Assembly: GCA_965223905.1 (NCBI GenBank)
Contig: CBDCXV010000010.1
Coordinates: 640,001-704,000 of the forward strand
Source: Candidatus Latescibacterota bacterium
GTDB lineage: Bacteria > Latescibacterota > UBA2968 > UBA8231
Direction of reading: 5' to 3'
DNA length: 64,000 nucleotides
Below are positions 20,548 through 59,395 of the stretch, one piece after another. Below the pieces are notes generated by a model. That model was not told the DNA's origin, searched no databases, and saw nothing but the letters and a program-made list of their open reading frames with translations. How positions within the stretch are numbered: position 1 is the first letter of the stretch; each line of letters starts with the position of its first letter. Position numbers and translations under genes: made by a program.

Positions 20548-20554
20548 GACACCC

Positions 20555-22037: not shown

Positions 22038-22115
22038 CTTTCCCCGAGCCGTATTCGACGACACCGGGCGATTGCCCCCGGCCTCCCTTGAATGCGGCTG
22101 GGGCCGCCCCACATG

Positions 22116-22150
22116 AAAAAGGCGCGTCCCGAAGATGAGACGCGCCTTTT
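22116..22150. terminator. Bidirectional Rho-independent terminator
   Basis: AAAAAGGCGCGTC-loop-GACGCGCCTTTT between convergent genes. Confidence 0.85.
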
Positions 22151-22256
22151 CCGCGTTTACCTGTCCCGTCCCGCTGTGTGAAAACCGCTGCCCGCCTCGG
22201 GCGCCTGCCGCTCGAGGCGGCGCCTTGCCGGCGACAGGGTCTTCCGGTGGTGCCGG

Positions 22257-23165
22257 CTACGATTTGGCCGGCACTACCTCCCAGCGGTGATGCCTGGCGC
22301 CCCTGGCCGCCTCAGCTGCCAGGGCCTCTGCCCACATCCGCGCCCACTCGCCGTGATCGGTCAGCACCGAGTCCGGGTTCGAGCGGCTGCGCACCACGAA
22401 GTCCGGGTAGAACGGGCGCCCGGTCGGGGTGCCGGTCTTCTGGTATCGCAGGTCCATGCTCCAGCGCACCGTGTCGGTGTTGTTCGGGGTCGAGCGATGG
22501 GGGATCTCCTTGCTCATCAACAGCAGGTCCCCCTTCTCCATCGGCAGGGTCAGCGGTTCGACGTCGGGCATCGCCTCTTCGGCGATCACCGTCCCCCTGC
22601 CCTGGATGGTCTCGTGTTTCCACAGCCCGGTCTTGTGCACCCTGGGGATGATCTGGAGACAGCCGTTTTCCGGCGTCGCCGGGACCATCGGCAGCCATAC
22701 CGTCAGGATGAAGTGGGGATCCGCCTCTTCCCAGGTGACGCCGGCGTCCTGGTGCCAGGGCGCCACGTGGCCGTCCCCCATCTTGGTGGTGCCGTGCGGC
22801 AGCTTGCCGCGGATGTGCTGGATCGGGCTGCAAGTGATCTCCGGCCCGACGATGGGTTCGACGAGACCCAGCAGGTTGTCGTTGAGCAGAAATTCGAACG
22901 ACGCCTTCCCCCGCAGCCGGTATATGTCGAGGTCGTCGTAGATCTCCGCGCACTGGTCGTTGATCAGGGCGAGCCGCTTGTCGAACGGGGCATCGGCGTG
23001 CGGATCCCCGATCTTCCCCTCTGCCAGCAGCTCGTTCGCCCGCCGGTCGATGTGCGCCTCGTACTCCTCGATCACGGGGTCGATGTCGCTGTCCGAGAGG
23101 GCGCCCCGCAGCAGCAGGAAGCCGTCGTTGTCGAACATCTTCAGTTGTTCTTCGGTCAGTCCCAT
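22257..23165 (-). CDS. PhyH family Fe(II)/2OG dioxygenase
   Basis: LTEEQLKMFDNDGFL, WHQD, ENGCLQIIP, PHRSTPN...RWSMDLRY; ATG at 23165. Confidence 0.92.
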   Translation of the reverse strand: MGLTEEQLKMFDNDGFLLLRGALSDSDIDPVIEEYEAHIDRRANELLAEGKIGDPHADAPFDKRLALINDQCAEIYDDLDIYRLRGKASFEFLLNDNLLGLVEPIVGPEITCSPIQHIRGKLPHGTTKMGDGHVAPWHQDAGVTWEEADPHFILTVWLPMVPATPENGCLQIIPRVHKTGLWKHETIQGRGTVIAEEAMPDVEPLTLPMEKGDLLLMSKEIPHRSTPNNTDTVRWSMDLRYQKTGTPTGRPFYPDFVVRSRSNPDSVLTDHGEWARMWAEALAAEAARGARHHRWEVVPAKS

Positions 23166-23406
23166 GTCAGCGCTCCGATTTTGTGAAGGGTGCTTTCTCA
23201 AAGGTGCCACTTGGAGGGGAAGTCATCAAGAATTCGCGTCGATACTCGCGATTCCTGTTCCTATTCAATTTCCTGATTATGTCATATTTTCCGGCGCCTT
23301 ATACCCACCAGGGCAACATACGACCGATGACCGGCACCCGACTTATGGGCCGTGCAACAGGCGGGCGGAGTCGGATTCCCCAATTAGTTCAGTTAGAGCG
23401 AAAACA

Positions 23407-26406
23407 ATGACCACCCCTACGATATTCGAAACATGCCGGCCGCGCGCGGATGTTCTCGAGGGAGCGATTTCCGAGGACTTCGCTGCGGATCTCGCCCAAG
23501 TTATCACCGGCTCGGGAAATGTCGAATACCTCGACCCGGCACGTTTCTTCTCCACCACCTATCCCACAAGGGGCCTCAGAAACCTGCTCGCCAACGTGTG
23601 CCGGAGGCTGACCGGTGCCGGCGGTGAGGTGGCATCGATCTTCCGGCTGGACACTTCCTACGGGGGTGGCAAAACCCACGGACTGATAGCGTTGTGCCAT
23701 GCCGCCCGGGGCATGCAGGGTGTGTCGAATGTTCCTGAGTTCGTCGACCCTTCCCTGCTTCCGGGGGGAAACGTCCGCATCGCCGCATTCGATGGGGAAA
23801 ACGCGGACCCGGCCAACGGCAGGGCCATGGGCGACGGCATTTTGGCCCACACACCCTGGGGTGAGATCGCGTACGCGCTGGCCGGCAAGGATGGGTACGA
23901 GAGGGTGCGCAATAGCGATGAAAGCCGCATTTCCCCGGGAGCCGAGACCTTGCGCGAGCTGTTCGGCGGCGAGCCGACACTGATTTTGCTCGACGAGCTT
24001 TCGGTTTACCTGCGCAAGGTGAGAAACCTCGCGGACGCCCGTGATCAGTTGACGGCCTTCCTGACCTCGTTGTTCAAGGCCGTCGAAAGCGCGCCAAAGG
24101 CCGCCCTCGTCTATACACTTGCCATCGGAAAAGACGGACGGGCTACCGATGCCTACAGCGATGAAAATCAGTTCATCGCCGATCACATGGCGGAAGCAGA
24201 AAGCGTCTCCGCGCGCAAGGCGACCCTGTTGAATCCTACCGAGGAAGACGAGACGGTTCAGGTGCTCCGCCGCCGACTGTTCGAATCGGTTGATGACACC
24301 AGGATTTCGGCGGTCACGGATGCCTACCGGGATCTCTGGGCGGCCAACAGGGAATCTCTGGCGGATGATGCCGCACGGCCCGGGACCATCGAGACCTTTC
24401 TTTCGAGTTACCCACTGCATCCGGAAGTTCTGGAGACCCTGAGAGGCAAGACCGCAACGCTCGGCAATTTCCAGCGAGTGCGCGGCATGCTGCGACTACT
24501 TGCCCGCACGATCTCCCATCTTTGGGAAGAGAAGCCCGGGGACGCGACCGCCATTCATCTTCACCATATTGATCCGGGCTACGAGCCGATCCGCCAGGAG
24601 ATCGTGACCCGCCTCGGACAGTCCGCCTATGTGCCGGCCATTTTGAACGACGTAGCCTCCGGGGGCGAGAAGAAGGCGTTGGCGCAGGAGATCGACAGTG
24701 CACATCACAGCGGCCTGCCGCCCTACGCGGTCTATGTCGCCCGCACCATCTTCATGCACACGCTCGCCTTCAACGAGCCGCTGAAGGGGATCCCGCCGAA
24801 ACAGTTGCTCTATTCTGTTTTGGGTCCAACCACGGACGTCAGCTTTATCGACGAGGCGCGGAAAAAGTTCATCGCCGAATCCGCATATCTCGACGACCGC
24901 CCCGGCGCTCCGATGCGTTTTCTGGCCGAGGCCAATCTGGTTCAGATCATCCGCCGCGAGGAGCGCCACGTCGACGCCGCGGAAGCGCGCGCTCAGCAAA
25001 ATGACCGCATCCGTGAGATATTCGGCGGAAAGACGTTCGAGACCGTGTCATTCCCGGGAGGGCCGTTCGACATCCCAGACGAGGTTGCCGATGGCCGGCC
25101 GAAACTCGTGGTCCTGGCCTATGACGCGGTGACTATCGGCAGTTCGGTCGAGAACGTACCCGAGTTGATCGAGCGGATTTTCGCGCGGAAAGGCTCGGAG
25201 GGTTCAGCCTTGAGAGCGCTTCGAAACAGCCTGGTGTTCGTGGTCGCCGACGACGCACGCAAGGAGGAGATGCGCCGCAAGACCCATCATCGTTTGGCGC
25301 TGCGGGAACTGAAAAAGCCGGACCGCCTCATCGATCTGGCGGAGCACCAGCAGGACCGGGTGCGCGAGATGGAAGCCCGATCCGAGCAGGAACTTGCGAT
25401 CGCCATTCAGCAGTGCTACCGGCACGTTTTCTATCCTTCCCGAAACCGGGTAGGCACCAGTGACGTCGATCTGGCCCACTCCGCTATCGACGTCCATTCC
25501 GCCTCCGATAAGCCCGGCGCAGGCCAGCAACAGATAGTTAGGGCATTGCGAGACCTGGGGAAGCTGCGCCTCCCCGAGGACGAGCCGGACTCCCCAGCCT
25601 ATGTGCGGGACCGAACCCCACTCAAGAAAGGGCAAATCACCACGCTGTCGCTGCGCGATGAGTTCCGGCGCGATCCGGCACTGCCCATCCTGATCGGTGA
25701 CGATATCTTCATCCGCGGCGTCCGGCTAGGAATCGACCAGGGGGAATACGTCTATCAAAGGGGAGAATTGCTTTTCGGCCCGGCAGATCCATCGGCCAGC
25801 ATTCTGATCGACGAGCAGTCCCTGATCTTTACCATGGCGTACGCCAGGAATGCGGGCTTCTGGCCGCGCAAGCCCGAGCCGGCGACCAAACCTCCGGAAC
25901 CACCTGAGCCCCCCGAGCCGCCGGAGCCACCCTCCCTACCTGAGCCACCGACCTCAGAAATCGGATCCTATACGGCCGAGGGTATCCTCAGAGAGGCATT
26001 GGTCCGACTGTGGGAGCAGGCCCGGGCCGACGATGTCGACCGGATCGGGGTCCTGACCATCCGCATGTTCGAAGCCGGCGACGCCTTCCGTCTTCTCGGC
26101 GCCGTGGGGGCCGTATCCGGCGCCGACAAGATCGTCACCTTCACGGGCGGCTACGAAACTAGGCACGGGGCCTCCTTCGTACTCGACCAGTTCCGAGGCC
26201 CGGTGACGGATGCTCAGCCCGTGAGGGAATTCCTGGAGCCGCAGTTGCGCGACGCCGCTTCCAACGACCTTCAAGCGGGGTTCGAGTTGACCTTCGCCGA
26301 CGGTCTCTCCATGAAGGGAGACGCGGCAGAGAAGCTCACCGAGCGGCTCTCGCGCTACGCGAGCGGGGCCGCGTACGTGTCCGCCGCGGCCGAGGCACGG
26401 ACCTGA
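23407..26406 (+). CDS. DUF499 family AAA+ ATPase (BrxC/PglY-related)
   Basis: FAADL, FFSTTYPT, Walker A TSYGGGKTH, TPWGEIA, Walker B LILLDE, SYPLHPE, FQRVRGMLRLLA. Confidence 0.92.
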   Translation: MTTPTIFETCRPRADVLEGAISEDFAADLAQVITGSGNVEYLDPARFFSTTYPTRGLRNLLANVCRRLTGAGGEVASIFRLDTSYGGGKTHGLIALCHAARGMQGVSNVPEFVDPSLLPGGNVRIAAFDGENADPANGRAMGDGILAHTPWGEIAYALAGKDGYERVRNSDESRISPGAETLRELFGGEPTLILLDELSVYLRKVRNLADARDQLTAFLTSLFKAVESAPKAALVYTLAIGKDGRATDAYSDENQFIADHMAEAESVSARKATLLNPTEEDETVQVLRRRLFESVDDTRISAVTDAYRDLWAANRESLADDAARPGTIETFLSSYPLHPEVLETLRGKTATLGNFQRVRGMLRLLARTISHLWEEKPGDATAIHLHHIDPGYEPIRQEIVTRLGQSAYVPAILNDVASGGEKKALAQEIDSAHHSGLPPYAVYVARTIFMHTLAFNEPLKGIPPKQLLYSVLGPTTDVSFIDEARKKFIAESAYLDDRPGAPMRFLAEANLVQIIRREERHVDAAEARAQQNDRIREIFGGKTFETVSFPGGPFDIPDEVADGRPKLVVLAYDAVTIGSSVENVPELIERIFARKGSEGSALRALRNSLVFVVADDARKEEMRRKTHHRLALRELKKPDRLIDLAEHQQDRVREMEARSEQELAIAIQQCYRHVFYPSRNRVGTSDVDLAHSAIDVHSASDKPGAGQQQIVRALRDLGKLRLPEDEPDSPAYVRDRTPLKKGQITTLSLRDEFRRDPALPILIGDDIFIRGVRLGIDQGEYVYQRGELLFGPADPSASILIDEQSLIFTMAYARNAGFWPRKPEPATKPPEPPEPPEPPEPPSLPEPPTSEIGSYTAEGILREALVRLWEQARADDVDRIGVLTIRMFEAGDAFRLLGAVGAVSGADKIVTFTGGYETRHGASFVLDQFRGPVTDAQPVREFLEPQLRDAASNDLQAGFELTFADGLSMKGDAAEKLTERLSRYASGAAYVSAAAEART
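25891..25950 (+). repeat. Pro-Pro-Glu tandem repeat linker in the DUF499 protein
   Basis: PPEPPEPPEPPEPPSLPEPP encoded with varied synonymous codons. Confidence 0.85.
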
Positions 26407-26409
26407 GAG

Positions 26410-26904
26410 ATGGCACGGCTCAAGAGATTTGTCCAGATCGACAGGCCGGCCTCCGCGCCCCGGTACGAACTGCGCGTGCGCAGTACCGGCCTGACCGAGG
26501 CCGAATACGAGATCTGGCAGATGCCTTCCCAAGCTACCCCTCAGGTGACCTGTCCCCTGCGGGTGGCGGGGCTTCGCGGGCGCAACCTCGAGCTGGTCGA
26601 GCACCGGGTGCTGAAGCGGCTTTCCCGGTCCGGCGTCAAGCTCTCCGGCGGGGCTGGCGCCAGCAAAAACGGCTACGCCCTCAGCGAAGACCTGGCGCTG
26701 ACCCTGGGGCTGTTGTTCCGAACCCTGGCGCCCATGCGAAGCCGCGACAACATGCGGGCAGTGGCAGAAGGGATCGAGGCAATGGAACACGAGGAGGCCG
26801 CGTACTGGCTCGGCATGGCAATGCATCGGAAGCAACCGCGCCGGGTGCTGACCGCCTTGCGCTTCCTTCTGACCGAGCCCAGGCGAGCAGAAGGGCGATC
26901 ATGA
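26410..26904 (+). CDS. Small protein at the DUF3780 position of DUF499-DUF1156 operons
   Basis: 3 bp after the DUF499 stop; C-terminal helical MEHEEAAYWLG motif. Family assignment is positional. Confidence 0.7.
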   Translation: MARLKRFVQIDRPASAPRYELRVRSTGLTEAEYEIWQMPSQATPQVTCPLRVAGLRGRNLELVEHRVLKRLSRSGVKLSGGAGASKNGYALSEDLALTLGLLFRTLAPMRSRDNMRAVAEGIEAMEHEEAAYWLGMAMHRKQPRRVLTALRFLLTEPRRAEGRS

Positions 26905-28010
26905 TGAATACAGAAGCTGCTGAGCAGTCCATCGAGATCGAAGAACCTGAGGGCTTGGAGGAAGGCGCGTCGTGGGGAGACTACCCGCTCGACGAAATGC
27001 TGATACGCAACGACCACCGGACCGTTCGCGACGTCCTGCACCGCATCGATCAGGGTCGCTACGTGATGAACCCCGACTTCCAGCGCGGTTTCATCTGGCC
27101 CGAGGACAAGCAGAGCAAGCTGGTTGAATCGGTGGTCATGCGCATTCCGTTGCCGGTCTTTTACATGGCGGAGGATTCCGAGGGCCGGATGGTGGTGGTA
27201 GACGGCCTGCAGCGCCTGTCCACGTTCAAACGCTTCGTCGGCGGCGAGCTCAAGCTCCGACTGCCGGACCGCCCCGAGCTGAACGGCCAACGCTTTGCCG
27301 ACTTGCCGCCGAAGTTTCAGAATCGCGTCGAGGACTGCAACCTGATCTTCTACATCATCGACTCGAAGGCGCCTGAGCGTGCCCGGCTGGACATCTTCGA
27401 GCGCGTCAACGGCGGTCTCCAATTGACGCGGCAGCAAATGCGCAACTGCCTCTACATGGGAAAGGCGACGCAATTCCTCAGAGACGAGGCGCAGGCCGAG
27501 ATGTTCCGCACGGCGACGGGCGCCAGCCTGAATCCGTCGACCATGCGGGATCGCGAGTTCGTGAACCGCTTCTGCGCATTTCAGGTACTTGGCGCCGACC
27601 AATACCAACGCGGCGACATGGACGTTTTTCTTGCCCGCTGCCTGATACGCATGAACGAGATGAACGACACGGAATTGTCCGAACTCTCCGCGACATTCCA
27701 TCGCGGCCTCGCCAACAATTTTCAGCTCTTCGAACGTAACGCCTTTCGCAAGCGCAAGCCCGAGCAGGAAAAGAGAAGCGTGCTCAACGCATCCCTTTGG
27801 GATGTGATGAGCACGGGGCTGTCGCACCACTCGGAGTCGCAGGTCGAAGCACAGGCCGATGAACTGCGCGAGGCCGTGTACGGCTTGTTGCGGAACGAGG
27901 AGTTCAACACCGCCATCACCTATGGCCCGAACGATCCGAAAAAGGTGAAGACGCGATTCGACATGGCCCGGACGGCGCTGCGGGAGGTGCTCGGTGATCA
28001 CGCGGATTGA
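26901..28010 (+). CDS. DUF262 (ParB/Srx-like, GmrS-type) protein; Menshen NsnA-like
   Basis: PDFQRGFIW, VVDGLQRL, IFERVNGG motifs; ATGA overlap with the upstream gene. Confidence 0.9.
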   Translation: MMNTEAAEQSIEIEEPEGLEEGASWGDYPLDEMLIRNDHRTVRDVLHRIDQGRYVMNPDFQRGFIWPEDKQSKLVESVVMRIPLPVFYMAEDSEGRMVVVDGLQRLSTFKRFVGGELKLRLPDRPELNGQRFADLPPKFQNRVEDCNLIFYIIDSKAPERARLDIFERVNGGLQLTRQQMRNCLYMGKATQFLRDEAQAEMFRTATGASLNPSTMRDREFVNRFCAFQVLGADQYQRGDMDVFLARCLIRMNEMNDTELSELSATFHRGLANNFQLFERNAFRKRKPEQEKRSVLNASLWDVMSTGLSHHSESQVEAQADELREAVYGLLRNEEFNTAITYGPNDPKKVKTRFDMARTALREVLGDHAD

Positions 28011-29154
28011 CCTGCGTCACTTCAAGTGCTTCGAGACACTCAGGCTGCCGTTGCGCCGACTCACGTTGCTGTCGGGCCTCAACGCCTCCGGCAAGTCGTC
28101 GGTGATGCAGGCGCTGGTTCTGCTGCATCAGACCATGCGCGAGCATGAGTGGTCGCGGCGGCTCATGCTCAATGGCGCCGCCCTTCGTCTGGGCGCCGTC
28201 AGGGATGTGATCGATCAGATCAGTGGAGGGCGCGGGTGCTCCCTGGCCCTCGAGGACGATGATGCAGGCTTGGTTGAATGGGAGTTCAGCGGCGAACAAG
28301 GCGCCATGTCGATGGCCGTTGTCCTCGTGCGGGCAACAGCGGAATGGCGGAGGGCCGATCCACAACCCTTGCAGTACCTGCTCCCCGAGGCTGTGGCGAA
28401 TTCGCCCGAGGGGGGTTCGCTGGCCAGGCGCCTGCAAGGTCTGACCTGGCTGGCCGCCGAACGCCTGGGACCGAGAGATCTGTATGCGCTGGACGATCCC
28501 GAGTTGACGCCCGTGGTCGGGCAGGCAGGCGAACACACAGCCAGCGTTCTCTACTCGGGCGCGGACGAGAGGATTGCCATCCCCCTGCTTGTGCAAGAGG
28601 TCGCGCCCACACTTCTTCGGCAGGTCGAAGCGCGAATGGGCGAGTTCTTTCCATGCTTCGGTATGGATCTGTCGCCGGTGGCGGGCGCCAATGCCGTCAC
28701 CCTGGGCGTGCGAACGTCGCGGGATACGGAGTTCCATCGGCCGGGCCATACCGGATTCGGCGTCACGCAGGTACTGCCGATCGTCGTCGCGGTTCTGGCC
28801 GCGAAACCCGACGACCTGCTGCTCATCGAGAACCCCGAGGTGCATCTGCATCCGGCCGGGCAGTCCAGGATGGGTGAATTCCTGGCCGCGGCCGCGAACG
28901 CCGGCCTGCAGGTGCTCATCGAGTCCCACAGCGACCATGTCCTCAATGGCATCCGGCGCGCTGTCAGAAACGGGATCCTCGATCCAGGCGACACCGCGCT
29001 GTACTTCTTCCGACCCCGCCACGAAGCCCAGACTTCGGGCGCGGCCCAGGTCGAGAGCCCGTCCATCGATGCCGACGGAAACATCGACACTTGGCCGGCC
29101 GGGTTCTTCGATCAGTTCGATCATGACATGAACGTCCTGGCCGGCTGGGACTGA
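27994..29154 (+). CDS. ABC-type ATPase with C-terminal DUF3696; Menshen NsnB-like
   Basis: GTG with GGAGG RBS; FKCF, GLNASGKSS, GFGVTQVLP, IENPEVHLHP, ESHSDH, WPAGFFDQ. Confidence 0.9.
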   Translation: MITRIDLRHFKCFETLRLPLRRLTLLSGLNASGKSSVMQALVLLHQTMREHEWSRRLMLNGAALRLGAVRDVIDQISGGRGCSLALEDDDAGLVEWEFSGEQGAMSMAVVLVRATAEWRRADPQPLQYLLPEAVANSPEGGSLARRLQGLTWLAAERLGPRDLYALDDPELTPVVGQAGEHTASVLYSGADERIAIPLLVQEVAPTLLRQVEARMGEFFPCFGMDLSPVAGANAVTLGVRTSRDTEFHRPGHTGFGVTQVLPIVVAVLAAKPDDLLLIENPEVHLHPAGQSRMGEFLAAAANAGLQVLIESHSDHVLNGIRRAVRNGILDPGDTALYFFRPRHEAQTSGAAQVESPSIDADGNIDTWPAGFFDQFDHDMNVLAGWD

Positions 29155-29155
29155 C

Positions 29156-30115
29156 ATGGACCTGCTGGCCAACGACCTGTCGGTTCATGAGCAGTTCCAC
29201 GACCTGGCCGGATTCCGGGAGGCCCTGTCGCAACTGATGGCCATGCGTCGAGCGGCCAGACGCTTCGGCCGCGAAGTCCATTGCCACAGGACATTGCTCA
29301 ACAGGGCGCCGATTGCGGGCATGCCAATGCAGCAGGCGGTCGGCAAACTGGGTGTGGAGAGCCAGCGCCGCGCCGTCATGGTCTGGATGACGCGATCCGG
29401 TCCGTTCTGGGACGATGTGCGGCGGCACGGCGGGGATGACTGGCTGGAGTGCCAAGGCGAAGTCGCCACGGATACCGCCGTCGGGGAGGCAGCATTCAGA
29501 ACCATGCACGGGGCGGAATGCGGCCTGGTCAGTCTCGCGCCGTCCGATTGGTGCGAGTCCCCTCTTGAGGTGACCTGGCTTCGAGAAGGCGAGGGATTGC
29601 GCAACCGGGAAGGGGCGGTCGAGAACTGGTGGCGCACGGAAGCGCTGGAGGCGGCGCTGCGAGATCAAGCGCCGCCCCTTCGCTCGTGGAATGGTTTGCG
29701 GGAGGCTTCGAGCCGGTTCGGGCGCCTCACCTTCGCCGAGGATTGCTTTTCGCCGCTGGCAAGGGTTCCCTTCTCCAAGAACGCGGCCGACCGCCTTCTT
29801 TTCTTGCTCGACATTCTGGACCGTTTCGCGCGCGCCTTCGACGACCGCGGGGCACGCAATCCCGAAGGCCACCGCCTCCAGGCGGATTACTTCACGGGCG
29901 AGCGGGCCCTGTTTTCCGACTCATCGGATACCGAAAAACGGCAGTTCGAGAGTGGGTTGACCTTTGCCCATCCGGCCGACCCGGGGAAAACCCTGCCTTG
30001 CCCATGGCACGGCAAGGTTTCGCATCTGACGCTCCGCCTGCACTTTTCGTGGCCCGTCGAGGCAAACAAACCTGTTTATGTGGTGTACGCCGGCTCCAAG
30101 ATCACGAAGCGGTGA
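29156..30115 (+). CDS. Hypothetical protein, putative third (effector) component of the DUF262-DUF3696 module
   Basis: 1 bp after the ATPase stop; C-terminus WHGK...LRLHF...VYVVYAG has a RelE-like strand pattern (inferred). Confidence 0.75.
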   Translation: MDLLANDLSVHEQFHDLAGFREALSQLMAMRRAARRFGREVHCHRTLLNRAPIAGMPMQQAVGKLGVESQRRAVMVWMTRSGPFWDDVRRHGGDDWLECQGEVATDTAVGEAAFRTMHGAECGLVSLAPSDWCESPLEVTWLREGEGLRNREGAVENWWRTEALEAALRDQAPPLRSWNGLREASSRFGRLTFAEDCFSPLARVPFSKNAADRLLFLLDILDRFARAFDDRGARNPEGHRLQADYFTGERALFSDSSDTEKRQFESGLTFAHPADPGKTLPCPWHGKVSHLTLRLHFSWPVEANKPVYVVYAGSKITKR

Positions 30116-30510
30116 CGGCGCCGCCTGACATACGGGAGGTGGACGGGTTGCATGTATTGCAGGAGTGGGAGGGCTATGTGGTCAGTATCGAAGACGATGC
30201 CTTCGTGGCTCGGCTCGTCGATGTGACTGCTGGCAAGACATACGCAGACGAAGAAGCCATCATTCCTCTAGACCAAGTCTCCGAGCATGACGCCGCCAAC
30301 ATGGAGATAGGAAGTATCTTTCGCTGGGTGATCGGATACGAATTTTCGCCTGGGCAAACCCGCAAGTCGGTGTCGCGGATCGTTTTTCTCGACCTGGGCA
30401 GGATGACCGAAGACGACCTGCGGGCTGGCCGTGAGTGGGCGGACAAGATCGCGCGGGGAGCTCAATCCATGACGAGTACGGACCGCACCCTGCGTAATAT
30501 GCTGCCCTGA
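30112..30510 (+). CDS. Hypothetical beta-rich protein (LQEWEGYVV motif)
   Basis: GTGA overlap with the upstream stop; 132 aa, beta-strand pattern. Confidence 0.7.
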   Translation: MTAPPDIREVDGLHVLQEWEGYVVSIEDDAFVARLVDVTAGKTYADEEAIIPLDQVSEHDAANMEIGSIFRWVIGYEFSPGQTRKSVSRIVFLDLGRMTEDDLRAGREWADKIARGAQSMTSTDRTLRNMLP

Positions 30511-30650
30511 CCGCACCGAGGCATTTTGCACGACGACGACATGCGCGGGGCCACGCGCCCGGCGTACTCCTCTTGCATCCGGGATGGATTGTCCGTCGAG
30601 CCGCTGGGGGACGCCTGCCGCCCCGCTCGGGAATACGGTGGAACGAGACA

Positions 30651-33600
30651 ATGACCGACAGACGCCTGATCGAGGACTGGCTGCCGATCGCGGAACTCGG
30701 CATCGAGAGCACTCGCGAGCGGACCCCGATGACGCCGTTCCCGGCCCCGAACCGCCTGCACGTCTGGTGGGCGCGGCGGCCGCTGGTGGCGTCTCGGGCA
30801 GCCGTGCTCGCATCCCTGCTGCCGGCGGATGCGGACCACGAGAAGTTCCTGCACGTGCTGGGGATCCATGGGGATCCGGTGGCCACCCGGGAGAAGATCA
30901 ATTCCGCACGTCGACGAGGCGAGCGGTTCGAAGGTCAAGCGTACAGCTATCCCCGGGCCTTCGGTCATGTGCCCCAAGAGGCCGATGTTGAGTGGATATC
31001 CGCCGCTCTGGGTGCATCTCCAAGAAACTTCGCGGCTCTCGACCCGACCGCTGGCGGAGGGAGCATCCCCTTCGAAGCCCTCCGCCTCGGAGCGAAGGCT
31101 GTCGCGAACGACTTGAATCCGGTCTCGGCCCTGATCATGCGCGCGACGGTGGAGTGGCCGTCAAGGCACGGCCGTGACCTTGGGCCTGAATTCGCTGCAT
31201 TGTCGCGACGGTTCGTTCTCGAGAGGGAGGAGCGGCTCGCGCCGCATTTTCCCCAGGAATCCGAGCCGGACGCCATATCGACCAATTTCCTCTGGGCCCG
31301 CACCATCACCTGCCCGTACTGCGCCGGCCTTGTCCCGCTCTCCCCGAACTGGCGTCTGACGCCGGGCGGAACCGGGGTGCGGCTGAAGCCGGAGCTGGCT
31401 TCAGGACCGGGTTCCGAAGGCCGCGTCTGCTCGTTCGAAATCGTGGAGAACGCGCGGGACCAGTCGCCGGGCACGGTGTCGCGAGGCGATGGCGCGTGCC
31501 CGTATTCGGACTGCATCCGCGTCGTCGACGGCGGCGAGATCAAGAGCCAGGCCCAGGCCGGAGACATGGGCGAGCAGCTCTACGCGGTCGTGTACAAGAA
31601 GCGCGTGCCGGGCAAGCTGCTGAAGTCCGGCAAGCGCGGCAAGGACCGATGGGTCCGGGGCTACCGTGCGCCGGCGTCCGAGGACGACAACGGCGCGGAG
31701 ATCGCGGCGAGGCTCGCCGAGAAGCTGCCGGAGTGGGAGGCCCTCGACTTGGTGCCGGGCGAGAGGATTCCGGACGGCAACAAGACGACGGAACCCCACC
31801 GTTACGGGATGCAGGTCTGGCGCGACCTGTTCTCGCCGCGCCAGCTTCTCTGTCACGCCACCGGCGTCGAGGTCTTCCGGGAGATGCTGGAGGCGGACCG
31901 GGCAAACGGGGAGTTGACCGACGTTCGGAAAGCGGCGTATGGCTACTTGGCGTTGTCGCTCGACAAGCTGCTGAACTACAACTCTCGCATGTCGATTTGG
32001 ATGCCAACGCGAGAGGTGGTGGCGAACACCTTTAACCGCCATGATTTCGCGTTCTGTTGGTCTCATGCCGAAATGGCCCCGCTAATCGCCGGGCTAGGCT
32101 ACGACTGGGCAATCCGCCAGACCGCCAAGTGCATCGACGAGCTCGTCGCGCTGGTGCGCCCCGATGCCGACATCGAGAACGACGATCTCTTCGACGATGC
32201 GAATGAGGCGAACTACAGACCGCCGCCGATCACGATTTCCTGCAAGCCGGGCGACAGCCTCGACCACATCGAAGACGGCAGCATCGACGCCGTGGTCATG
32301 GACCCGCCCTACTACGACAACGTGATGTACGCCGAGTTGTCGGACTTCTTCTACGTCTGGCTCAAGCGCACCGCCGGCCATCTCTTCCCCGACCTGTTCC
32401 GCCGCCACCTGACCGACAAGGAGAACGAGGCGGTTGCCAATCCGGCGCGGTTCCAGGGCCAGAAGGGCGCGAAGGCGCTGGCGGGCCGGGACTATCAGGA
32501 GCGCATGGCGTCGATCTTCGCCGAGTGCCGCCGGGTACTGAAGCCCGGCGGCATCATGACGCTCATGTTCACGCACAAGGCGACCGGCGCCTGGGACGCG
32601 CTGACCAAGGGCCTGATGGAGGCCGGCTTCGCAATCACCGCGTCCTGGCCGGTCAACACCGAGGCCGAGGGCAGCCTGCACATCCGCAACAAGGCGGCGG
32701 CCAACAGCACCGTCTTTCTGGTCTGCCGCCCGCCGCATCCTGGCGCTGACCGCGCTGACGAGGAATACGCAGAAGAGGTTCGCGAAGGGGCGCCGCCGTA
32801 CGGAGAGTCCCCGACCTCCCTCTATTGGGAAGACGTGGAGCCGAAGGTGGCGCAGGCCGTCCGAGCGAAGGTTGAAGAGTTCCAGAACTCCGGCATTGTC
32901 GGGGTCGATCTCTATCTCGCTTCGTTCGGGCCGGCGTTGGAGGAGTTCTCCCGCCACTGGCCCTTGAGGCGGGGAACGCCGCGCGAGGTGCCCGAGGAGC
33001 GCCGGCGGCGGCTCCAGCATGTGTTGTTCGAAGAGGAATGGGATCCCTACGCGGCGACTCCGGAGGACGCTCTCGACGTGGCCCGGCGCGAGGTCAAGCG
33101 CTGGCGCCTGGAGCAACTGACCCATCTCAAGGCCGATGCCGATCTCGACCCCACCACGGCCTTCTTCGTGCTCGCCTGGGACGCCTTCAAGGCGCCGATA
33201 TTCCTCTATGACGAGGCCCTCCGGCTCGCCCGCGCCGTTGGTGTCGATCTCGACGGCGACATCATCGGACGACTGGCGCAGAAGAAGGGCAGCGATCTGC
33301 TGATGTGGGACAGCGCCCGCCGTGCGGCCAAGGGGTCACTCGGCCCGGCGGATGGTTCCCGAGGCATGATCGACGCCATCCACCATGCCGCCAACATGGC
33401 CCGCGCCCGCTCTCTCGAGGCCTCCCGGGACCTGCTGGCCGAGACGCTGGTCGACCAGGACCCGCGCTTCTACTCCGGCCTCGAAGCCGTGCTGGAGGTG
33501 CTCCCGGTGTCCGGGGCCTTTACCGGCATCGAACTCGAAGGCGAGGCGGCCGCCGCCAGCAACGACTTCGAAGCTCTCTACAACCTGTACCGTCTCGCCT

Positions 33601-33659
33601 ACAGCGATCAGATCGATGAGCCTGAGCAACTCAAGCTCTGGCAAGACGATGACCTGTGA
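30651..33659 (+). CDS. DUF1156 family DNA amino-methyltransferase with Zn ribbon
   Basis: RLIEDWLPI, LHVWWARRPL, SAM motif DPTAGGGSIP, CPYC...CPYSDC, catalytic DPPYYDN, RVLKPGG. Confidence 0.93.
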   Translation: MTDRRLIEDWLPIAELGIESTRERTPMTPFPAPNRLHVWWARRPLVASRAAVLASLLPADADHEKFLHVLGIHGDPVATREKINSARRRGERFEGQAYSYPRAFGHVPQEADVEWISAALGASPRNFAALDPTAGGGSIPFEALRLGAKAVANDLNPVSALIMRATVEWPSRHGRDLGPEFAALSRRFVLEREERLAPHFPQESEPDAISTNFLWARTITCPYCAGLVPLSPNWRLTPGGTGVRLKPELASGPGSEGRVCSFEIVENARDQSPGTVSRGDGACPYSDCIRVVDGGEIKSQAQAGDMGEQLYAVVYKKRVPGKLLKSGKRGKDRWVRGYRAPASEDDNGAEIAARLAEKLPEWEALDLVPGERIPDGNKTTEPHRYGMQVWRDLFSPRQLLCHATGVEVFREMLEADRANGELTDVRKAAYGYLALSLDKLLNYNSRMSIWMPTREVVANTFNRHDFAFCWSHAEMAPLIAGLGYDWAIRQTAKCIDELVALVRPDADIENDDLFDDANEANYRPPPITISCKPGDSLDHIEDGSIDAVVMDPPYYDNVMYAELSDFFYVWLKRTAGHLFPDLFRRHLTDKENEAVANPARFQGQKGAKALAGRDYQERMASIFAECRRVLKPGGIMTLMFTHKATGAWDALTKGLMEAGFAITASWPVNTEAEGSLHIRNKAAANSTVFLVCRPPHPGADRADEEYAEEVREGAPPYGESPTSLYWEDVEPKVAQAVRAKVEEFQNSGIVGVDLYLASFGPALEEFSRHWPLRRGTPREVPEERRRRLQHVLFEEEWDPYAATPEDALDVARREVKRWRLEQLTHLKADADLDPTTAFFVLAWDAFKAPIFLYDEALRLARAVGVDLDGDIIGRLAQKKGSDLLMWDSARRAAKGSLGPADGSRGMIDAIHHAANMARARSLEASRDLLAETLVDQDPRFYSGLEAVLEVLPVSGAFTGIELEGEAAAASNDFEALYNLYRLAYSDQIDEPEQLKLWQDDDL

Positions 33660-36600
33660 GCATGCTGCGTGATCGCACATGGCAGCTCAAGTACACCCCC
33701 GATGACGGCGATCTCGTCACCCTGTTCTATCTCCCCGCCCTCGAGGACGCCGAGCGCTACGACCGCCTGACCGGATACTTCAATGCCTGCGCCCTGTCCC
33801 TTGCGGCGCGCGGCATCGAGGGGCTGGTCCGAAACGGGGGCCGAATGCGTCTCGTCGCCGGCTGCACTCTGGCGGCGCCGGAAATCGAGGCGATCGAAAG
33901 GGGAGAGCAGTTGCGTGACCTCGTCGAACGGCGTTTGACGAGTCCCCCCCTCGACCCGCCGGACTCCGACTCTTCCCAAGCCCTGGAACTGCTGGCCTGG
34001 ATGGTGGCCCGCGGCTTCCTCGATGTGAAGGTCGCCGTGCCTTGCGATGCCGATTCCAAGCCGATCCCCGCGGACGGCATCTTTCACGAGAAGGCCGGGA
34101 TCATCCAAGACCGGGGCGGTGACAAGATCGCCTGGAATGGCAGCGTCAACGAGACGGCCGCCGGCTGGCAGTACAACTGGGAGAGCATCAGCGTCTTTAC
34201 AAGCTGGGGTCCGGAGCCCCGCAGGGTTGAAGATGAGGAGGCCAACTTCGCCCGCATATGGGCGAACAAGGCGCAACGCGTGATCGTCCTCGACGTGCCC
34301 GATGCTGCGCGCCGTGACCTGATGCGCTTCATGCCGGCGAACGACAGGCCCGCCCGCCTCGACAAGCTCGAGAGCAAACCGGTGAAGCCCTTGCCCGAAG
34401 AGCCGGACTCTCCACCCCGGGAACCCAGAGACTCGCCGCAGGGCGGGCAGGTGGATCTACGAAGCCGCGTCTGGTCCTTCATCCGGCATGCTCCCACATT
34501 GTCACAGACGGGAGAACGTGTAGGCGAGATGACCTCGGCGGTCACTCCCTGGCCTCACCAGGTGAGAGCCTTTGAGCGCCTCTACCACAATTGGCCGCCC
34601 AGACTGCTGATCGCCGATGAAGTTGGCCTCGGTAAGACCATCCAGGCAGGCATGCTGTTGAGACAGGCCTGGCTCTCCGGTCGAGTCAAACGGATCCTGA
34701 TCCTGGCTCCCAAGGCTGTCCTGAACCAGTGGCAGATCGAGCTGCGCGAGAAGTTCAACCTCAACTGGCCGATCTACGACGGGAGCAAGCTGGTCTGGTA
34801 CCCTTCTCCGGCTTGGCGCGGACGGAACGAGCGCGATGCTGACCGCGACCACTGGCACCAGGAACCAGTGGTGATCGCCTCGAGCCACCTGATGCGACGG
34901 CGAGATCGTGCCGCGGCTCTTCTGGAGCAAGCCGAACCCTGGGACTTGGTGATACTCGACGAGGCCCACCATGCCCGCAGGCGCGCCGCGGGAAGCCCGC
35001 AGGAAGGCGGCCCCAACGCCCTTCTCCAGCTCATGCAGGGTCTCAAGAACCGAACGAAGGGATTGGTTCTGCTGACGGCCACGCCGATGCAGGTGCATCC
35101 CATTGAGGTCTGGGACCTGCTGGATCTCCTCGGCCTGCCGCCGGAGTGGGACTCCAAGGCGTTCCTCGACTTCTTCGAGGACATGGCGCAGGAGAGTCCC
35201 TCCGAGGAGGCCCTGGATCGTATGGCCGGGCTGTTCCGGTCAGCCGAAGGCGCATACGGGGCCGTCGAGACGGAGGAAGCCCAACGACGTGCCGACCTGA
35301 CGCCCTTGAAGGCCAACAAGATCCTCCGTGCCCTGCGTGACGCCGCCAGTATCCCGCGCCGTCAGCTGGAAACCACGGAACGCCGCGCCGCGATGAGAAT
35401 CATGCAGGCCCACACGCCGCTGCGCAGGCTGGTCTCTCGACACACGCGAGAGGTGCTGCGGCGGTACTTCAGGGCGGGAATGTTGACGACGCGGGTTGCT
35501 GATCGCCAGGTGGAAGACCGCTTTCTCCAGATGACTCCGGAAGAGCGGGAACTCTACGACGCGGTCGAGAAATACATCGCCAGTACCTACAACCAAGCCA
35601 GCGCGAAGGAGCGTACGGCCGTGGGCTTTGTCATGACCATCTATCGCCGCCGGCTGGCCAGCAGCTTCCGGGCCCTGAGCAGAACGCTTCAGAAGCATCG
35701 CGAAGCCATTGCCGCCGGGGATCAGGCACAGTTGGCGGGCCTCGACGAAGACGTTCCGGACGATGAACTGATCAGCGAGTACCCGGATACCGCCGAGCTG
35801 GAGAAACTCCAGCTCCAGGCTCTTGCGGCCGAGGAGGAGGCCGACATCCACGGTCTTCTCGACTCCATCGAGGGCCTCCCGCCCGACAGCAAGCTCGCAG
35901 GCCTGAAGAGCGCTCTTGACGAGGTGCGCCAGGACGGGTACAGCCAAGTGATGGTCTTCACCCAGTACACGGACACCATGGATTTCCTGCGCGAGGAGCT
36001 CCACAAGGACGCAGATTCGAGGCTGATGTGCTTCTCAGGGCGCGGTGGTGAAGTGCCGTCTGCTGACGGCACCTGGCGACGGATCACCCGCGACGACGCC
36101 AAGCGGCGGTTCCTCGAGGGTGAGGCCGACGTCCTTCTATGCACCGAGGCCGCGGCCGAGGGTTTGAACTTTCAGTTCTGCGGCGCCCTGATCAACTACG
36201 ACATGCCCTGGAACCCCATGAAGGTGGAGCAACGCATCGGCCGCATCGACCGGCTCGGCCAGCAACATTCCGTCATCCGGATTGTCAACCTGCACTACGA
36301 GGGCACAGTGGAAACCGACGTGTACCGGGCGCTCAGGGAACGCATCGGTCTGTTCGAGTCCGTGGTCGGGCGGCTGCAGCCCATTCTCGCCAGGCTCCCC
36401 GGTGTCATTTCGGAAACGGTACTGTCGGGCCGCGAGCGCGAGGAAGCGGAACGCGCTCGGGTCGTTAGCAGGATCGAACAGCAGGCAACTGAATCAGAGA
36501 GAAGCGGATTCGATATCGATGCGGTGACAGAAGAAGAACTCACCATGCCGGAGCGACCACGGTCACCGGTTACCATGGAAGACCTCGACCGGGTGATCGG

Positions 36601-36844
36601 AACCCCGGATCTCATGCCTCCCGGCTTCGATGTCCAGTCAATGAGAAACCGGGAATACGGCCTGCTGGCCCCTGGTATGATTGACCGCCTCCGCGTGACC
36701 ACTGATCCCGGGTATTTCGAGAAACATGCCGAGAGCATGGAGCTCTGGTCGCCGGGCAATGCGCTGTTTATCCCTCCGGAGTTCGCAACGCAGGAGGCCC
36801 CGCCCCCAGGCGACAAGACGTTGAAGGACATCCTGGACGGCTGA
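33656..36844 (+). CDS. PLD-like nuclease fused to SNF2-family helicase
   Basis: GYF, FHEKAGI (HxK), NGSVNET; IADEVGLGKT, DEAH, LTATP, VFTQY, EGLNFQ, NYDMPWNP, QRIGRIDRLGQ. GTGA overlap with the methylase. Confidence 0.93.
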   Translation: MSMLRDRTWQLKYTPDDGDLVTLFYLPALEDAERYDRLTGYFNACALSLAARGIEGLVRNGGRMRLVAGCTLAAPEIEAIERGEQLRDLVERRLTSPPLDPPDSDSSQALELLAWMVARGFLDVKVAVPCDADSKPIPADGIFHEKAGIIQDRGGDKIAWNGSVNETAAGWQYNWESISVFTSWGPEPRRVEDEEANFARIWANKAQRVIVLDVPDAARRDLMRFMPANDRPARLDKLESKPVKPLPEEPDSPPREPRDSPQGGQVDLRSRVWSFIRHAPTLSQTGERVGEMTSAVTPWPHQVRAFERLYHNWPPRLLIADEVGLGKTIQAGMLLRQAWLSGRVKRILILAPKAVLNQWQIELREKFNLNWPIYDGSKLVWYPSPAWRGRNERDADRDHWHQEPVVIASSHLMRRRDRAAALLEQAEPWDLVILDEAHHARRRAAGSPQEGGPNALLQLMQGLKNRTKGLVLLTATPMQVHPIEVWDLLDLLGLPPEWDSKAFLDFFEDMAQESPSEEALDRMAGLFRSAEGAYGAVETEEAQRRADLTPLKANKILRALRDAASIPRRQLETTERRAAMRIMQAHTPLRRLVSRHTREVLRRYFRAGMLTTRVADRQVEDRFLQMTPEERELYDAVEKYIASTYNQASAKERTAVGFVMTIYRRRLASSFRALSRTLQKHREAIAAGDQAQLAGLDEDVPDDELISEYPDTAELEKLQLQALAAEEEADIHGLLDSIEGLPPDSKLAGLKSALDEVRQDGYSQVMVFTQYTDTMDFLREELHKDADSRLMCFSGRGGEVPSADGTWRRITRDDAKRRFLEGEADVLLCTEAAAEGLNFQFCGALINYDMPWNPMKVEQRIGRIDRLGQQHSVIRIVNLHYEGTVETDVYRALRERIGLFESVVGRLQPILARLPGVISETVLSGREREEAERARVVSRIEQQATESERSGFDIDAVTEEELTMPERPRSPVTMEDLDRVIGTPDLMPPGFDVQSMRNREYGLLAPGMIDRLRVTTDPGYFEKHAESMELWSPGNALFIPPEFATQEAPPPGDKTLKDILDG

Positions 36845-37010
36845 CTCATTCGCAGGCCGCGGGCGCGGTTTGCTGAGTGCCACTGTACAAGGATCGGCAC
36901 GCCCGGTACCCAGTCGCGACTCCCTCAAGACGATCTCCCGAAGGGCGACCGTCTCCTCCCCCCCGGCATCCGTCCCGCCCCCCTCAGTACAGAAGCAAAT
37001 GCCCCTTTTT

Positions 37011-37060
37011 TTGACTGTGCCTGGTTTTGCCAACATATTTGTTTGCAACAAATCCGTTGG
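37011..37060 (+). promoter_or_regulatory. Sigma70-like promoter overlapped by a palindromic operator
   Basis: TTGACT(37011)-N17-CATATT(37034); inverted repeat CCAAC-AT-ATTTGTT-TGC-AACAAAT-CC-GTTGG at 37030-37060. Confidence 0.65.
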
Positions 37061-37077
37061 AGACGAATGGCAAAGGG

Positions 37078-38343
37078 ATGTCACTCAGGAAAGCCGGGGC
37101 AAATTGGGTTGAGGGGGATCGGTTCTTCGACCGGGAGAGCGAGCTTGAAGCGCTCACCGAGCGGGTAAGGGACGGAACCCACACGCTGTTGACTGCCCAG
37201 CGGCGGATGGGCAAAACGAGCCTGGTTCGGGAGCTACAGCGTCGCTTACAGGCAGAGGCCAAGTTCGAGATGGTCTTCGTCGATCTGGAGGGCGCTGCAA
37301 CCCCTGCAGATGCCATAGCCGAAATCGGGGTTCAGTCGAGGTCGGTGCAGGGCGCATGGCGCCGGATCAAGGCTTGGCTCGCCAACAACTTATTGGAGGT
37401 CGGGATCGGCGCTCGGCTAGATGAGCTGGCTGCACCCGAGGTGTGGGTAAAGCTCCGCGCCGCGATCGATGCCGGAAACTGGCGGCAGAAAGGTGACGAG
37501 GTCTTCGCTGCTCTGGCGAAGAATGATCGTCGTGTGGTGCTGGCAATCGACGAACTCCCGATTCTCGTCAACCGGTTGCTGAAAGGAGACGACTACCGCA
37601 TCACGCCAGAGCGACGGCAGGCGGTTGACGAGTTCTTGGGCTGGCTTCGCAAGAACGGCCAGGCGCATCGTGGCCGAATCTGTCTGATCCTCTCCGGCAG
37701 CGTCAGTCTCGAACCGATCCTGCGACAGGCCGGGCTCAGCGCCCACGCTAACATCTTCTTCCCCTTCGATCTGAAGTCCTGGGACGATGAGACCGCCGCC
37801 GCCTGCCTCGCGGAGCTGGCCAACAGTTATTGCCTCGATCTCCCCCTCCCGGTCCGCTTGGAGATGTGCCGCAAACTGCGGTGTCAGATTCCCCACCATG
37901 TGCAGCAATTCTTCGACAACCTTCACGAAGATCTGCGCAGCGCCGGCCGGAGCGAAGCCACGATGACCGACGTAGAGCGGGTGTACACCACTGAAATGCT
38001 CGCCGTCCGAGGACAGATGGACCTCGATCATTACGAGAGCCGGCTGAAAATGGTGCTCGGGCGGGAGGTTTATGGAATCGCCCTTGAGATATTGACCGAA
38101 GCCGCGGTCGATGACGGCCAGTTGAGCAGCGATGTCGTCGACAGGTACCGCGAGTATTTCCAAGGCCGGGCCCAAGCCGAAACCGAGGCGGACCCGGTCC
38201 CGATCGAGGACGTGCTCTACGTGCTCGAACATGACGGGTACCTTGAGCGGCAGGGCGACGGCTACCGGTTCGTATCGGGTCTGCTCGAAGACTGGTGGCG
38301 CGCTCGGCACAGCCGGCACTTCGTCCCCATCAAACTGCGCTGA
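37078..38343 (+). CDS. STAND-like (archaeal-type) P-loop ATPase with C-terminal winged helix
   Basis: FFDRESE, Walker A variant TAQRRMGKTS, Walker B LAIDE, LSGS, LEHDGYL...FVSGLLEDWW. Confidence 0.85.
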   Translation: MSLRKAGANWVEGDRFFDRESELEALTERVRDGTHTLLTAQRRMGKTSLVRELQRRLQAEAKFEMVFVDLEGAATPADAIAEIGVQSRSVQGAWRRIKAWLANNLLEVGIGARLDELAAPEVWVKLRAAIDAGNWRQKGDEVFAALAKNDRRVVLAIDELPILVNRLLKGDDYRITPERRQAVDEFLGWLRKNGQAHRGRICLILSGSVSLEPILRQAGLSAHANIFFPFDLKSWDDETAAACLAELANSYCLDLPLPVRLEMCRKLRCQIPHHVQQFFDNLHEDLRSAGRSEATMTDVERVYTTEMLAVRGQMDLDHYESRLKMVLGREVYGIALEILTEAAVDDGQLSSDVVDRYREYFQGRAQAETEADPVPIEDVLYVLEHDGYLERQGDGYRFVSGLLEDWWRARHSRHFVPIKLR

Positions 38344-38364
38344 ATCATAACGGAGCAGGAAACG

Positions 38365-41820: not shown

Positions 41821-41862
41821 CCCATTCATGGCCGAAGTCGCTTCCGCTGGCCTCCATAATCC

Positions 41863-43704
<1,842 letters not shown>

Positions 43705-59319: not shown

Positions 59320-59395
59320 GCGGGAGTAGCTCAGTTGGTAGAGCCCAACGTTGCCAACGTTGTTGTCGCGGGTTCGAGTCCCGTCTCCCGCTCCA
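59320..59395 (+). tRNA. tRNA-Gly (GCC)
   Basis: Acceptor GCGGGAG/CTCCCGC, D arm GCTC/GAGC, anticodon arm CAACG-TTGCCAA-CGTTG, T loop TTCGAGT, encoded CCA; 76 nt. Confidence 0.98.

Follow-up and report, generated by a model that had tools for sequence, protein, structure and literature searches.

A Menshen system in the cargo slot of an Hma-type operon of a Latescibacterota bacterium

The DNA analysed here, a stretch of 64,000 nucleotides from a Candidatus Latescibacterota genome (GenBank assembly GCA_965223905.1, contig CBDCXV010000010.1, positions 640,001 to 704,000 of the forward strand; hereafter the window), carries at positions 23407-36844 a Menshen anti-phage system set between the genes of an Hma-type operon. 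We favour the explanation, to which we assign a probability of about 0.7, that one operon holds two self-sufficient and mutually independent anti-phage systems, and that the Menshen genes were swapped into a hotspot for exchangeable cargo. The same place in related operons is filled with a variety of other cassettes, and mosaic breakpoints lie in the conserved hma genes on both sides of it.

Eight open reading frames (ORFs), all on the plus strand, occupy the region. The outer genes are hmaC (23407-26406), which encodes a DUF499 AAA+/STAND-type ATPase of 999 amino acids (aa), a small core gene designated G2 (26410-26904; DUF7680, 164 aa), hmaB (30651-33659) for an N6-adenine DNA methyltransferase of 1002 aa with an N-terminal DUF1156, and a helicase-nuclease gene (33656-36844; 1062 aa) whose product joins an N-terminal HKD/PLD domain to a RapA-like SNF2 helicase. 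Between G2 and hmaB lie nsnA (26901-28010) for the ParB/DUF262 protein of Menshen (369 aa), nsnB (27994-29154) for its ABC-type ATPase with a DUF3696 C-terminus (386 aa), nsnC (29156-30115) for the third protein, the presumed effector (319 aa), a 132-aa ORF designated G6 (30112-30510), and a spacer of 140 bp (30511-30650). The genes are tightly packed, with a 3-bp gap between hmaC and G2, an ATGA (4-bp overlap) between G2 and nsnA, a 17-bp overlap between nsnA and nsnB, a 1-bp gap between nsnB and nsnC, a GTGA (4-bp overlap, GTG start) between nsnC and G6, the 140-bp gap ahead of hmaB, and a further GTGA between hmaB and the helicase gene. A preliminary description of this DNA had given the same genes, positions, families and junctions, together with the catalytic motifs DPPY, HxK, DGxQR and Walker A; the ORF positions, the Pfam, PADLOC and NCBIfam matches and our reading of the junctions bear it out, and all the motifs are found in the proteins. 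Terminator-like sites in the region number seven, against 14.7 expected from shuffled sequences, and none lies between operon genes in a consensus scan, which may not suit the host organism. The tight junctions and the lack of intergenic terminator-like sites are thus compatible with co-transcription of the outer and inner genes, which we regard as likely from the arrangement of the sequence. As for the co-expressed nested operon proposed earlier, the nesting is established, while co-expression stays at this level of compatibility.

The outer genes form an Hma operon, i.e., a DUF499-centred, "BREX-related" operon similar to restriction-modification (RM) systems. HmaC matches Pfam DUF499 (E 2e-37) and PADLOC HmaC (E 1.6e-95), contains the Walker A motif YGGGKT at residues 85-90 and the Walker B motif LILLDE at residue 192, and has more than 120 clusters of homologs at 77-91% identity. 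The G2 protein is assigned to Pfam DUF7680 (E 8.9e-44) and gives no Pfam match to DUF3780 even at E<=10. HmaB is recognised by Pfam DUF1156 (E 4.5e-16) and N6_N4_Mtase and by PADLOC HmaB (E 3.4e-67), with DPTAGGG at residue 131 and DPPY at residue 551; its start was set from the alignment with homologs and with the hmaB stubs treated below. In the helicase-nuclease, which matches Pfam SNF2-rel_dom and Helicase_C, the HKD domain (Pfam PLDc_2, E 4.1e-6, residues 136-202) shows HEKAGIIQD...GSVN at residues 144-165, with GSVN at 162, and the helicase motifs GLGKT and DEAH are present. The helicase core is RapA-like (PDB sequence match to RapA, E 1.3e-41), and PDB sequence searches with HmaC and HmaB returned no matches. 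Among the PADLOC models, the helicase scores lower on HmaA (E 1.4e-56, 190 bits) than on BrxH (E 2.3e-77; BrxHI|BrxHII, 259 bits), PbeA (E 6.8e-72, residues 4-441, 241 bits) and PLD_Helicase (E 2.8e-71, 239 bits), with DrmD at 224 bits; in this order of scores and in its HKD domain, it may differ from the helicase of the published Hma systems.

The outer genes had been likened to the BREX-related restriction-like (RL) systems of Gao. The BREX-related, Hma-like architecture stands, and membership in the RL equivalogs does not. The NCBIfam equivalogs NF042962-4 for anti-phage DUF499, DUF1156 and PLD proteins, which we take to be the Gao 2020 RL set, were reached with 199, 211 and 370 bits against cut-offs of 1200, 1000 and 1100 bits, and because these scores fall far under the curated cut-offs, the three window proteins are best regarded as distant relatives and not as members. 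The operon also exists free of cargo, on plasmids from bacteria in culture. Seven plasmid records contain a DUF7680 relative, and three of the four inspected (Aminobacter pMET2, Sinorhizobium pMl1 and Skermanella pTT6-3) carry the four genes alone with overlapping junctions; the fourth, Nostoc pTCL26-01_C, has an annotated VapBC pair between the methylase and helicase genes (L084:13462-14105).

The inner nsnABC genes constitute, judging from their sequence matches, a complete and true Menshen system. The combination of a DUF262 protein, an ATPase and a variable effector had earlier been assigned to Menshen, and this assignment is confirmed by near full-length matches to the NsnA, NsnB and NsnC models (E 1e-101 to 1e-114) in the gene order A-B-C. 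NsnA matches Pfam GmrSD_N (DUF262; E 4.8e-22) and PADLOC NsnA PDLC03877 (E 2.2e-114, residues 29-365), and has DGLQR at residue 101; a PDB sequence search with it found no match. NsnB matches PADLOC NsnB (E 6.4e-101, residues 1-384) and Pfam AAA_15, AAA_21 and DUF3696, with the Walker A motif GLNASGKS at residue 28 and the Walker-B-like stretch LLLIENPEVHLH. This stretch (residues ~270-281, window 28800-28840) reads LLL(I/V)ENPE.HLH in 15/15 NsnB sequences; related ABC ATPases have DEPE where NsnB has ENPE. NsnC is covered from residue 1 to 319 of 319 by PADLOC PDLC03896 (E 2.4e-113) and has homologs in 1073 clusters at E<=1e-5, with no match in Pfam, NCBIfam or PDB sequences and no usable protein-atlas match for its C-terminus. 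Other PADLOC NsnC models cover only half of the protein, some residues 1-140 and others 163-316, which suggests that NsnC is composed of two modules.

To place this arrangement among its relatives, we collected HmaC homologs from one-genome-per-species contigs and took the best 80 of 319 with 10-kb flanks (loci L001-L080). Their HmaC proteins are 59-89% identical to that of the window, and their hosts belong to at least eight phyla, including Latescibacterota, Acidobacteriota, Pseudomonadota, Binatota, Spirochaetota, Gemmatimonadota, Tectimicrobiota and others. This range of identity across many phyla, together with 21 changes of host phylum on the HmaC tree described below, implies frequent transfer of the whole operon between phyla. 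The ten proteins of the window and representatives of recurrent gap ORFs were searched against the 80 loci. G2 follows hmaC in 77 of them with a median gap of 0 bp, and the other three stop at a contig edge; its stop codon marks the left boundary of the cargo slot and hmaB the right one. The slot was scored in 76 loci, 53 of which are "closed", i.e., a full hmaB start lies downstream, and 23 "open", with hmaB beyond the fetched DNA. Cargo names were taken from representatives scanned with PADLOC and Pfam, the counts refer to genes on the same strand as hma, and one locus may hold several cassettes.

A complete Menshen occupies the slot in 11/53 closed loci and stands directly behind G2 in 4/23 open ones, and fragments of Menshen are found in 7/53 closed loci. 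The arrangement of the window is thus seen elsewhere, and because Menshen recurs in the slot of related loci, the nesting is not a chance arrangement. In the remaining closed loci or alongside Menshen, the slot holds a three-gene cassette, here called cassette B, that consists of c2, a G6-family gene and c3 with a metallo-beta-lactamase (MBL) fold (14/53), the G6 domain alone (6/53), Septu with PtuA and PtuB (10/53), the G9-G10 pair introduced below (5/53, and 3/23 open loci), PDC-M68 (2/53), TIR/SLOG genes (2/53), an RmrA-like HTH-M78 gene (2/53) or AbiLi (1/53), and in 9/53 the gap is shorter than 600 bp and contains nothing recognisable. Insertions concentrate at this junction: the gap between G2 and hmaB exceeds 600 bp in 43/53 loci, compared with gaps above 150 bp in 2/77 loci between hmaC and G2 and in 10/46 between hmaB and the helicase gene. 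The site behind the small gene had already been suspected to be a cargo hotspot, and since the cargo varies among loci and scatters across the HmaC tree, the junction of G2 and hmaB is a promiscuous hotspot. A second, weaker insertion site lies between hmaB and the helicase gene, where six of the ten gaps measure about 0.8 kb. The one such insert that was scanned, on the minus strand at L039:5048-5737, encodes a 229-aa PIN-domain protein, and gaps of about 775 bp are found in L043, L047, L049 and L079.

The turnover of cargo was followed on a FastTree phylogeny of 76 HmaC sequences, from which L045, L054, L066 and L075 (partial HmaC) and L059 (in-frame stop) were left out. On this tree, Menshen (17 rows) changes 14 times, cassette B 16 times and Septu 13 times. 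Three pairs of loci (L046/L050, L076/L079 and L006/L007) have hmaC and G2 that are about 97-99% identical in DNA and yet carry different cargo. L046 and L050 share 96.8% identity through hmaC and G2 and their cargo is unrelated; beyond it, hmaB is 84% identical over its first ~230 nt and gives no match over the next ~390 nt, after which an identity of 96.1% is restored at about +627. One genome, OZ240210.1, has two hma copies (L007 and L009) with unlike slot contents.

Further traces of exchange are stubs of the hmaB 5' end that stand between stacked cassettes in 9/62 loci with a detectable hmaB start. They comprise the first ~50-165 nt from the ATG, have variable ends, and lie at L005:16802-16890 and 19506-19597, L012:15984-16095, L020:16544-16705, L072:16010-16074, L030:15536-15626, L023:15328-15417 and L034:9691-9764, as well as in L019 and L029; the window has none. 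When eight stubs were aligned with six true hmaB starts, they shared the ATG start and showed signs of decay, e.g., an in-frame TAG in L030 and the loss of the ATG in L020. The variable ends suggest illegitimate joins within the 5' region of hmaB during serial insertion. The stub of L034 sits behind a G9-G10 pair upstream of hmaC. An nsnA-type leader with a 5' piece of the gene, as in L005, L011 and L074, persists without Menshen in L002, L006, L007, L009 and L010 (e.g., L006:13500-13570), and such a piece behind G2 looks like the scar of a lost Menshen cassette.

The window itself has a counterpart in L001, a Latescibacterota metagenome-assembled genome with the same chromosomal flanks. L001:6597-12484 is 92.6% identical to window positions 20002-25886, which cover the chromosomal genes for an M81 peptidase and PhyH as well as the initial 2.5 kb of hmaC, and L001:22002-23036 is 90.5% identical to 41488-42558, while identity between the two blocks is just 69-82%. 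This drop inside conserved flanks indicates that recombination has exchanged the interior of the island. On the left, the breakpoint lies at a low-complexity linker of HmaC, PEPPEPP (window ~25886-25962). The interior of L001 contains c2 and a G6-family gene, no Menshen, and an hmaB that lacks ~640 nt at its 5' end (coverage 0.79); of the G10 gene, just the final ~330 nt are present. In the window, a GC dip spans 23-42 kb. No integrase, transposase or tRNA gene was seen at the island edges, which are flanked by PhyH-like and RecQ genes, the sole tRNA lying at 59320; around Menshen there are no flanking repeats or att-like sites, only short repeats at chance level. Taken together, the sequences point to cargo that moves by recombination through the conserved hma flanks.

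The enzymatic roles in the model that we propose are drawn from knowledge of the protein families and from published work. HmaB would methylate host DNA at N6-adenine and so mark it as self, HmaC and its constant small partner DUF7680 may recognise or scan DNA, and the HKD-SNF2 protein would translocate on unmarked DNA and cut it. For Menshen, a sensor-transducer-effector model has been put forward, and NsnC is described as an inactive PIN-like N-domain with a nuclease-type C-domain (Li 2025, PMC12065111). The ParB/DUF262 protein NsnA would accordingly act as the sensor, the ABC-ATPase NsnB as the transducer and NsnC as the effector, probably a nuclease, with a trigger of their own. The DUF7680-hmaB junction would serve as a recombination hotspot with the conserved hma genes on either side as homology arms, so that whole cassettes could be swapped, stacked or deleted in the slot, and G6 and the spacer ahead of hmaB may have been left behind in this way. 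Embedded cassettes of the same orientation would be read from the hma promoter, and both layers would thus be co-expressed and co-inherited, with neither needing the other.

Several considerations weigh against this model. The 80 loci represent a single HmaC clade and come nearly all from metagenome-assembled genomes, and gap ORFs were called by a simple longest-ORF rule. That cargo travels together with the 5' end of hmaB is argued from a few recent pairs and the stubs, and a general linkage came out negative: among 53 rows, Menshen changes 11 times on the tree of the HmaB N-terminus (HmaB-N200) and 10 times on the HmaC tree, against a mean of 10.0 for shuffled labels. Cargo labels are not clustered relative to shuffled ones on either tree, which would equally fit fast turnover or poorly resolved trees. 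Co-transcription is deduced solely from gene spacing and from a consensus scan perhaps unsuited to the organism, and the 140-bp spacer could contain a promoter of a type outside the repertoire of the scan. Lastly, the Menshen of this slot is of a single subtype, which may leave room for a specific fit with this Hma clade.

An alternative explanation is a two-layer guard, in which Menshen is wired to Hma, with NsnA reading HmaB methylation or modified phage DNA or with Menshen silenced by the Hma complex, and fires once a phage anti-restriction protein disables Hma. PrrC in EcoprrI and BrxU in BREX are given as backup precedents (Payne 2024, 10.1101/2024.01.29.577857), and BREX, RM systems or methylases lie next to 27.9% of Menshen operons (Li 2025, PMC12065111). 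The translationally coupled junctions agree with this idea, and Menshen is among the commonest cargos of the clade (15/76 loci), always of the same subtype: the NsnC proteins of the 15 embedded systems are 55-72% identical to that of the window, and in a re-scan of Menshens from three loci 9/9 proteins matched the same three PADLOC models. However, unrelated systems occupy the slot equally often, and near-identical Hma operons occur with or without Menshen. The same Menshen type is also found outside the slot, upstream of hmaC in L068 and downstream of the helicase gene in L013. Distant relatives of NsnC (28-33% identity) belong to stand-alone operons of DUF262, DUF3696 and hypothetical genes on 4/4 plasmids inspected, one of which adjoins a type I hsdRSM and none of which lies within a DUF499 operon. 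No fusion or adaptor gene joins the two systems, the sole extra ORF, G6, coming from another cassette. The specific guard or backup partnership suggested in the preliminary description is therefore not borne out by a slot that takes Septu, PDC-M68, AbiL, TIR/SLOG and other genes interchangeably, and we consider it unlikely. If it were true, the locus would offer a tractable model of layered immunity.

A broader version of the same thought treats the junction of the DUF7680 gene with hmaB as a plug-in bay in which guards of Hma are lodged; cassettes such as Menshen would stay silent as long as the Hma complex works, and fire when a phage disables it or brings in modified DNA. The hmaB stubs would then record serial insertions, and the conserved hma genes would, as portable homology arms, let cassettes spread between phyla. 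The result would be an array of second-line defences that resembles an integron, needs no recombinase and is served by one promoter. We hold this to be rather doubtful, and give preference to a hotspot whose cargo works independently of Hma.

Another view of the same slot is selfish hitch-hiking in a decaying locus, where the insertion is neutral or harmful and polar on hmaB and the helicase gene, one of the systems is dead, and the locus represents a passing phase in the erosion of the island. Leftovers in the slot speak for it, i.e., the domain-only G6 ORF and the orphan 140-bp spacer, as do the truncated hmaB and the remaining 3' end of the G10 gene in L001, and fragments of Menshen and Septu are common. 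In the window, however, the seven large genes are full length in comparison with models and homologs and have intact catalytic motifs, and the outer genes are matched by homologs along 100% of their length; furthermore, in ten other loci a full hmaB start comes directly behind a complete Menshen. Decay of the whole locus is therefore improbable, and two functional, independent systems remain the preferred reading.

The leftovers are best understood through the family of G6. When it was searched exhaustively and without a profile, 2496 representative homologs emerged at E<=1e-3, mostly of about 200 aa, and G6 aligns just to their C-terminal ~105 residues (~95-199), which an alignment of 66 sequences shows to be the sole conserved part of the family. 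The family has no name in Pfam, PADLOC or NCBIfam, and the protein atlas labels it "hypothetical protein". The window copy keeps 31 of the 35 columns conserved at >=90% and has lost four, including the invariant P178. Full-length members normally stand in cassette B, between c2 (~233 aa) and c3 (~371 aa), and themselves have ~200 aa with a variable N-terminus and the conserved C-domain; examples are L008:13537-15923, L012:13559-15950 and L024:13563-15960. Neither c2 nor the G6-family gene of cassette B has a PADLOC, Pfam or NCBIfam name, and c3 gives weak ComEC, LmuA and 6A-MBL matches within its metallo-beta-lactamase fold. Ten of the 14 closed loci with all three genes have no Menshen genes or fragments. 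By guilt-by-embedding, cassette B is a candidate defence system. In L026 and L031, the N-terminus of c2 is joined directly to the G6 domain.

No c2 or c3 homologs or remnants were detected at E<=10 in the relevant region of the window. The 140-bp spacer has no blastn match in the 80 loci beyond its last ~11 nt, its RNA fold is no more stable than those of shuffled sequences (z = +0.87), a consensus scan found no promoter-like or terminator-like site in it, and an Rfam scan of 22900-42000 gave no match. Because c2 and c3 are missing as partners, 4/35 conserved positions are lost and the spacer is unmatched, both elements are read as leftovers: the G6 ORF is a probable remnant of recombination or deletion in an earlier cassette B, and the spacer may have the same origin. 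The 132-aa gene had previously been grouped with the inner Menshen module, which is at odds with its membership in the cassette B family. That it is a fourth Menshen component, e.g., an immunity or antitoxin gene for NsnC following the logic of DUF4160/DUF2442, is highly improbable and was rejected, even though it shares a GTGA start-stop overlap with nsnC, G6-domain-only ORFs accompany Menshen in L020, L026, L058 and L061, and toxin-antitoxin-like partners are described for one NsnC effector family (Li 2025, PMC12065111), since 11/15 embedded Menshens lack G6, L026 and L058 place it ahead of nsnA and not behind nsnC, it stands alone with PDC-M68 or RmrA-like cargo in L021 and L068, and the family resides mainly in cassette B.

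Nesting of defence genes in Hma, the association of Menshen with methylases and backup effectors in BR loci are already published, and embedded genes have already been used to find immune systems, so that the locus is mainly one more well-resolved example. Payne 2024 (10.1101/2024.01.29.577857) reports embedded genes in 62.7% of 1,485 Hma systems, with 22.8% of these genes being known defences and 96.7% co-oriented with the flanking system, and discusses backup, co-regulation and a "genomic sink" as ideas for their presence. The window resembles these systems in its DUF499 ATPase, methylase and helicase with additional co-oriented defence genes nested between them, and Septu is a frequent guest in both data sets. 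It differs in that the main text of that study names Menshen as an example of an ABC ATPase only and not as an Hma guest. The published count was also limited to three or fewer genes embedded between those of hma, whereas five ORFs separate hmaC from hmaB here, because the DUF7680 gene is not among the three hma genes of Payne; arrangements such as the present one may have escaped it for this reason.

By its HKD-helicase fusion, the window fits best with Type-2 BR systems, whose core consists of a DUF499 ATPase, a DUF1156 N6-methylase, the HKD-helicase fusion and one small standalone gene, and whose loci can contain embedded auxiliary or backup effectors (PMC12839542). The tripartite core and the single small gene are shared; the small gene of the window is DUF7680, while DUF3780 is present in 98% of Type-2 taxa in the same source. 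The Menshen of Li 2025 (PMC12065111) agrees with ours in its A-B-C order, its DUF262/ParB protein, its DUF3696 ABC ATPase and a polymorphic third protein, as well as in having methylase-based systems as frequent neighbours, and differs in that the window Menshen lies within such an operon and not beside one. The terms DUF499, DUF1156 and Hma do not occur in the main text of Li 2025, and in the running text of the papers searched, Menshen is nowhere described as lying within a DUF499 operon; a mention of DUF7680 was likewise not found in these papers. PrrC in the EcoprrI hsd operon and BrxU in the BREX of pEFER, both cited in Payne 2024, are similar cases of a second defence gene nested in a methylation-based system; for these a functional link (release on inhibition, or complementary targets) was shown by experiment, in contrast to the window, for which the comparative data indicate interchangeable cargo.

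Beyond the example itself, the comparison marks out a branch of the Hma/BR family that has DUF7680 and an HKD-helicase, and in which the slot always lies behind the small gene and changes its content very rapidly across at least eight phyla. It also provides traces of exchange at the sequence level, i.e., breakpoints in hmaC and hmaB, stubs and fragments, for a process whose mechanism was left open in published work. Finally, it flags two recurrent cassettes without annotation as candidate defence systems, one being cassette B and the other a pair of an ATPase and a STAND-TPR protein.

This second pair, G9-G10 (37027-41820, plus strand), adjoins the helicase gene and lies in the same low-GC island as the operon. 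G9 (37027-38343) encodes a 438-aa ATPase_2/AAA_22 protein and G10 (38365-41820) a 1151-aa protein with AAA_16, winged-helix and TPR regions. Pfam and PADLOC matches to the pair are weak only (in PADLOC, mad8), and in Clostridium estertheticum a plasmid carries a similar pair on its own; by sequence, G9-G10 is a candidate STAND-type defence pair. The C-terminal half of G10 (window 39803-41287) contains six copies of a diverged tandem unit of 129 nt (43 aa) with 60-83% identity, which are equivalent to the TPR-like repeats of the protein.

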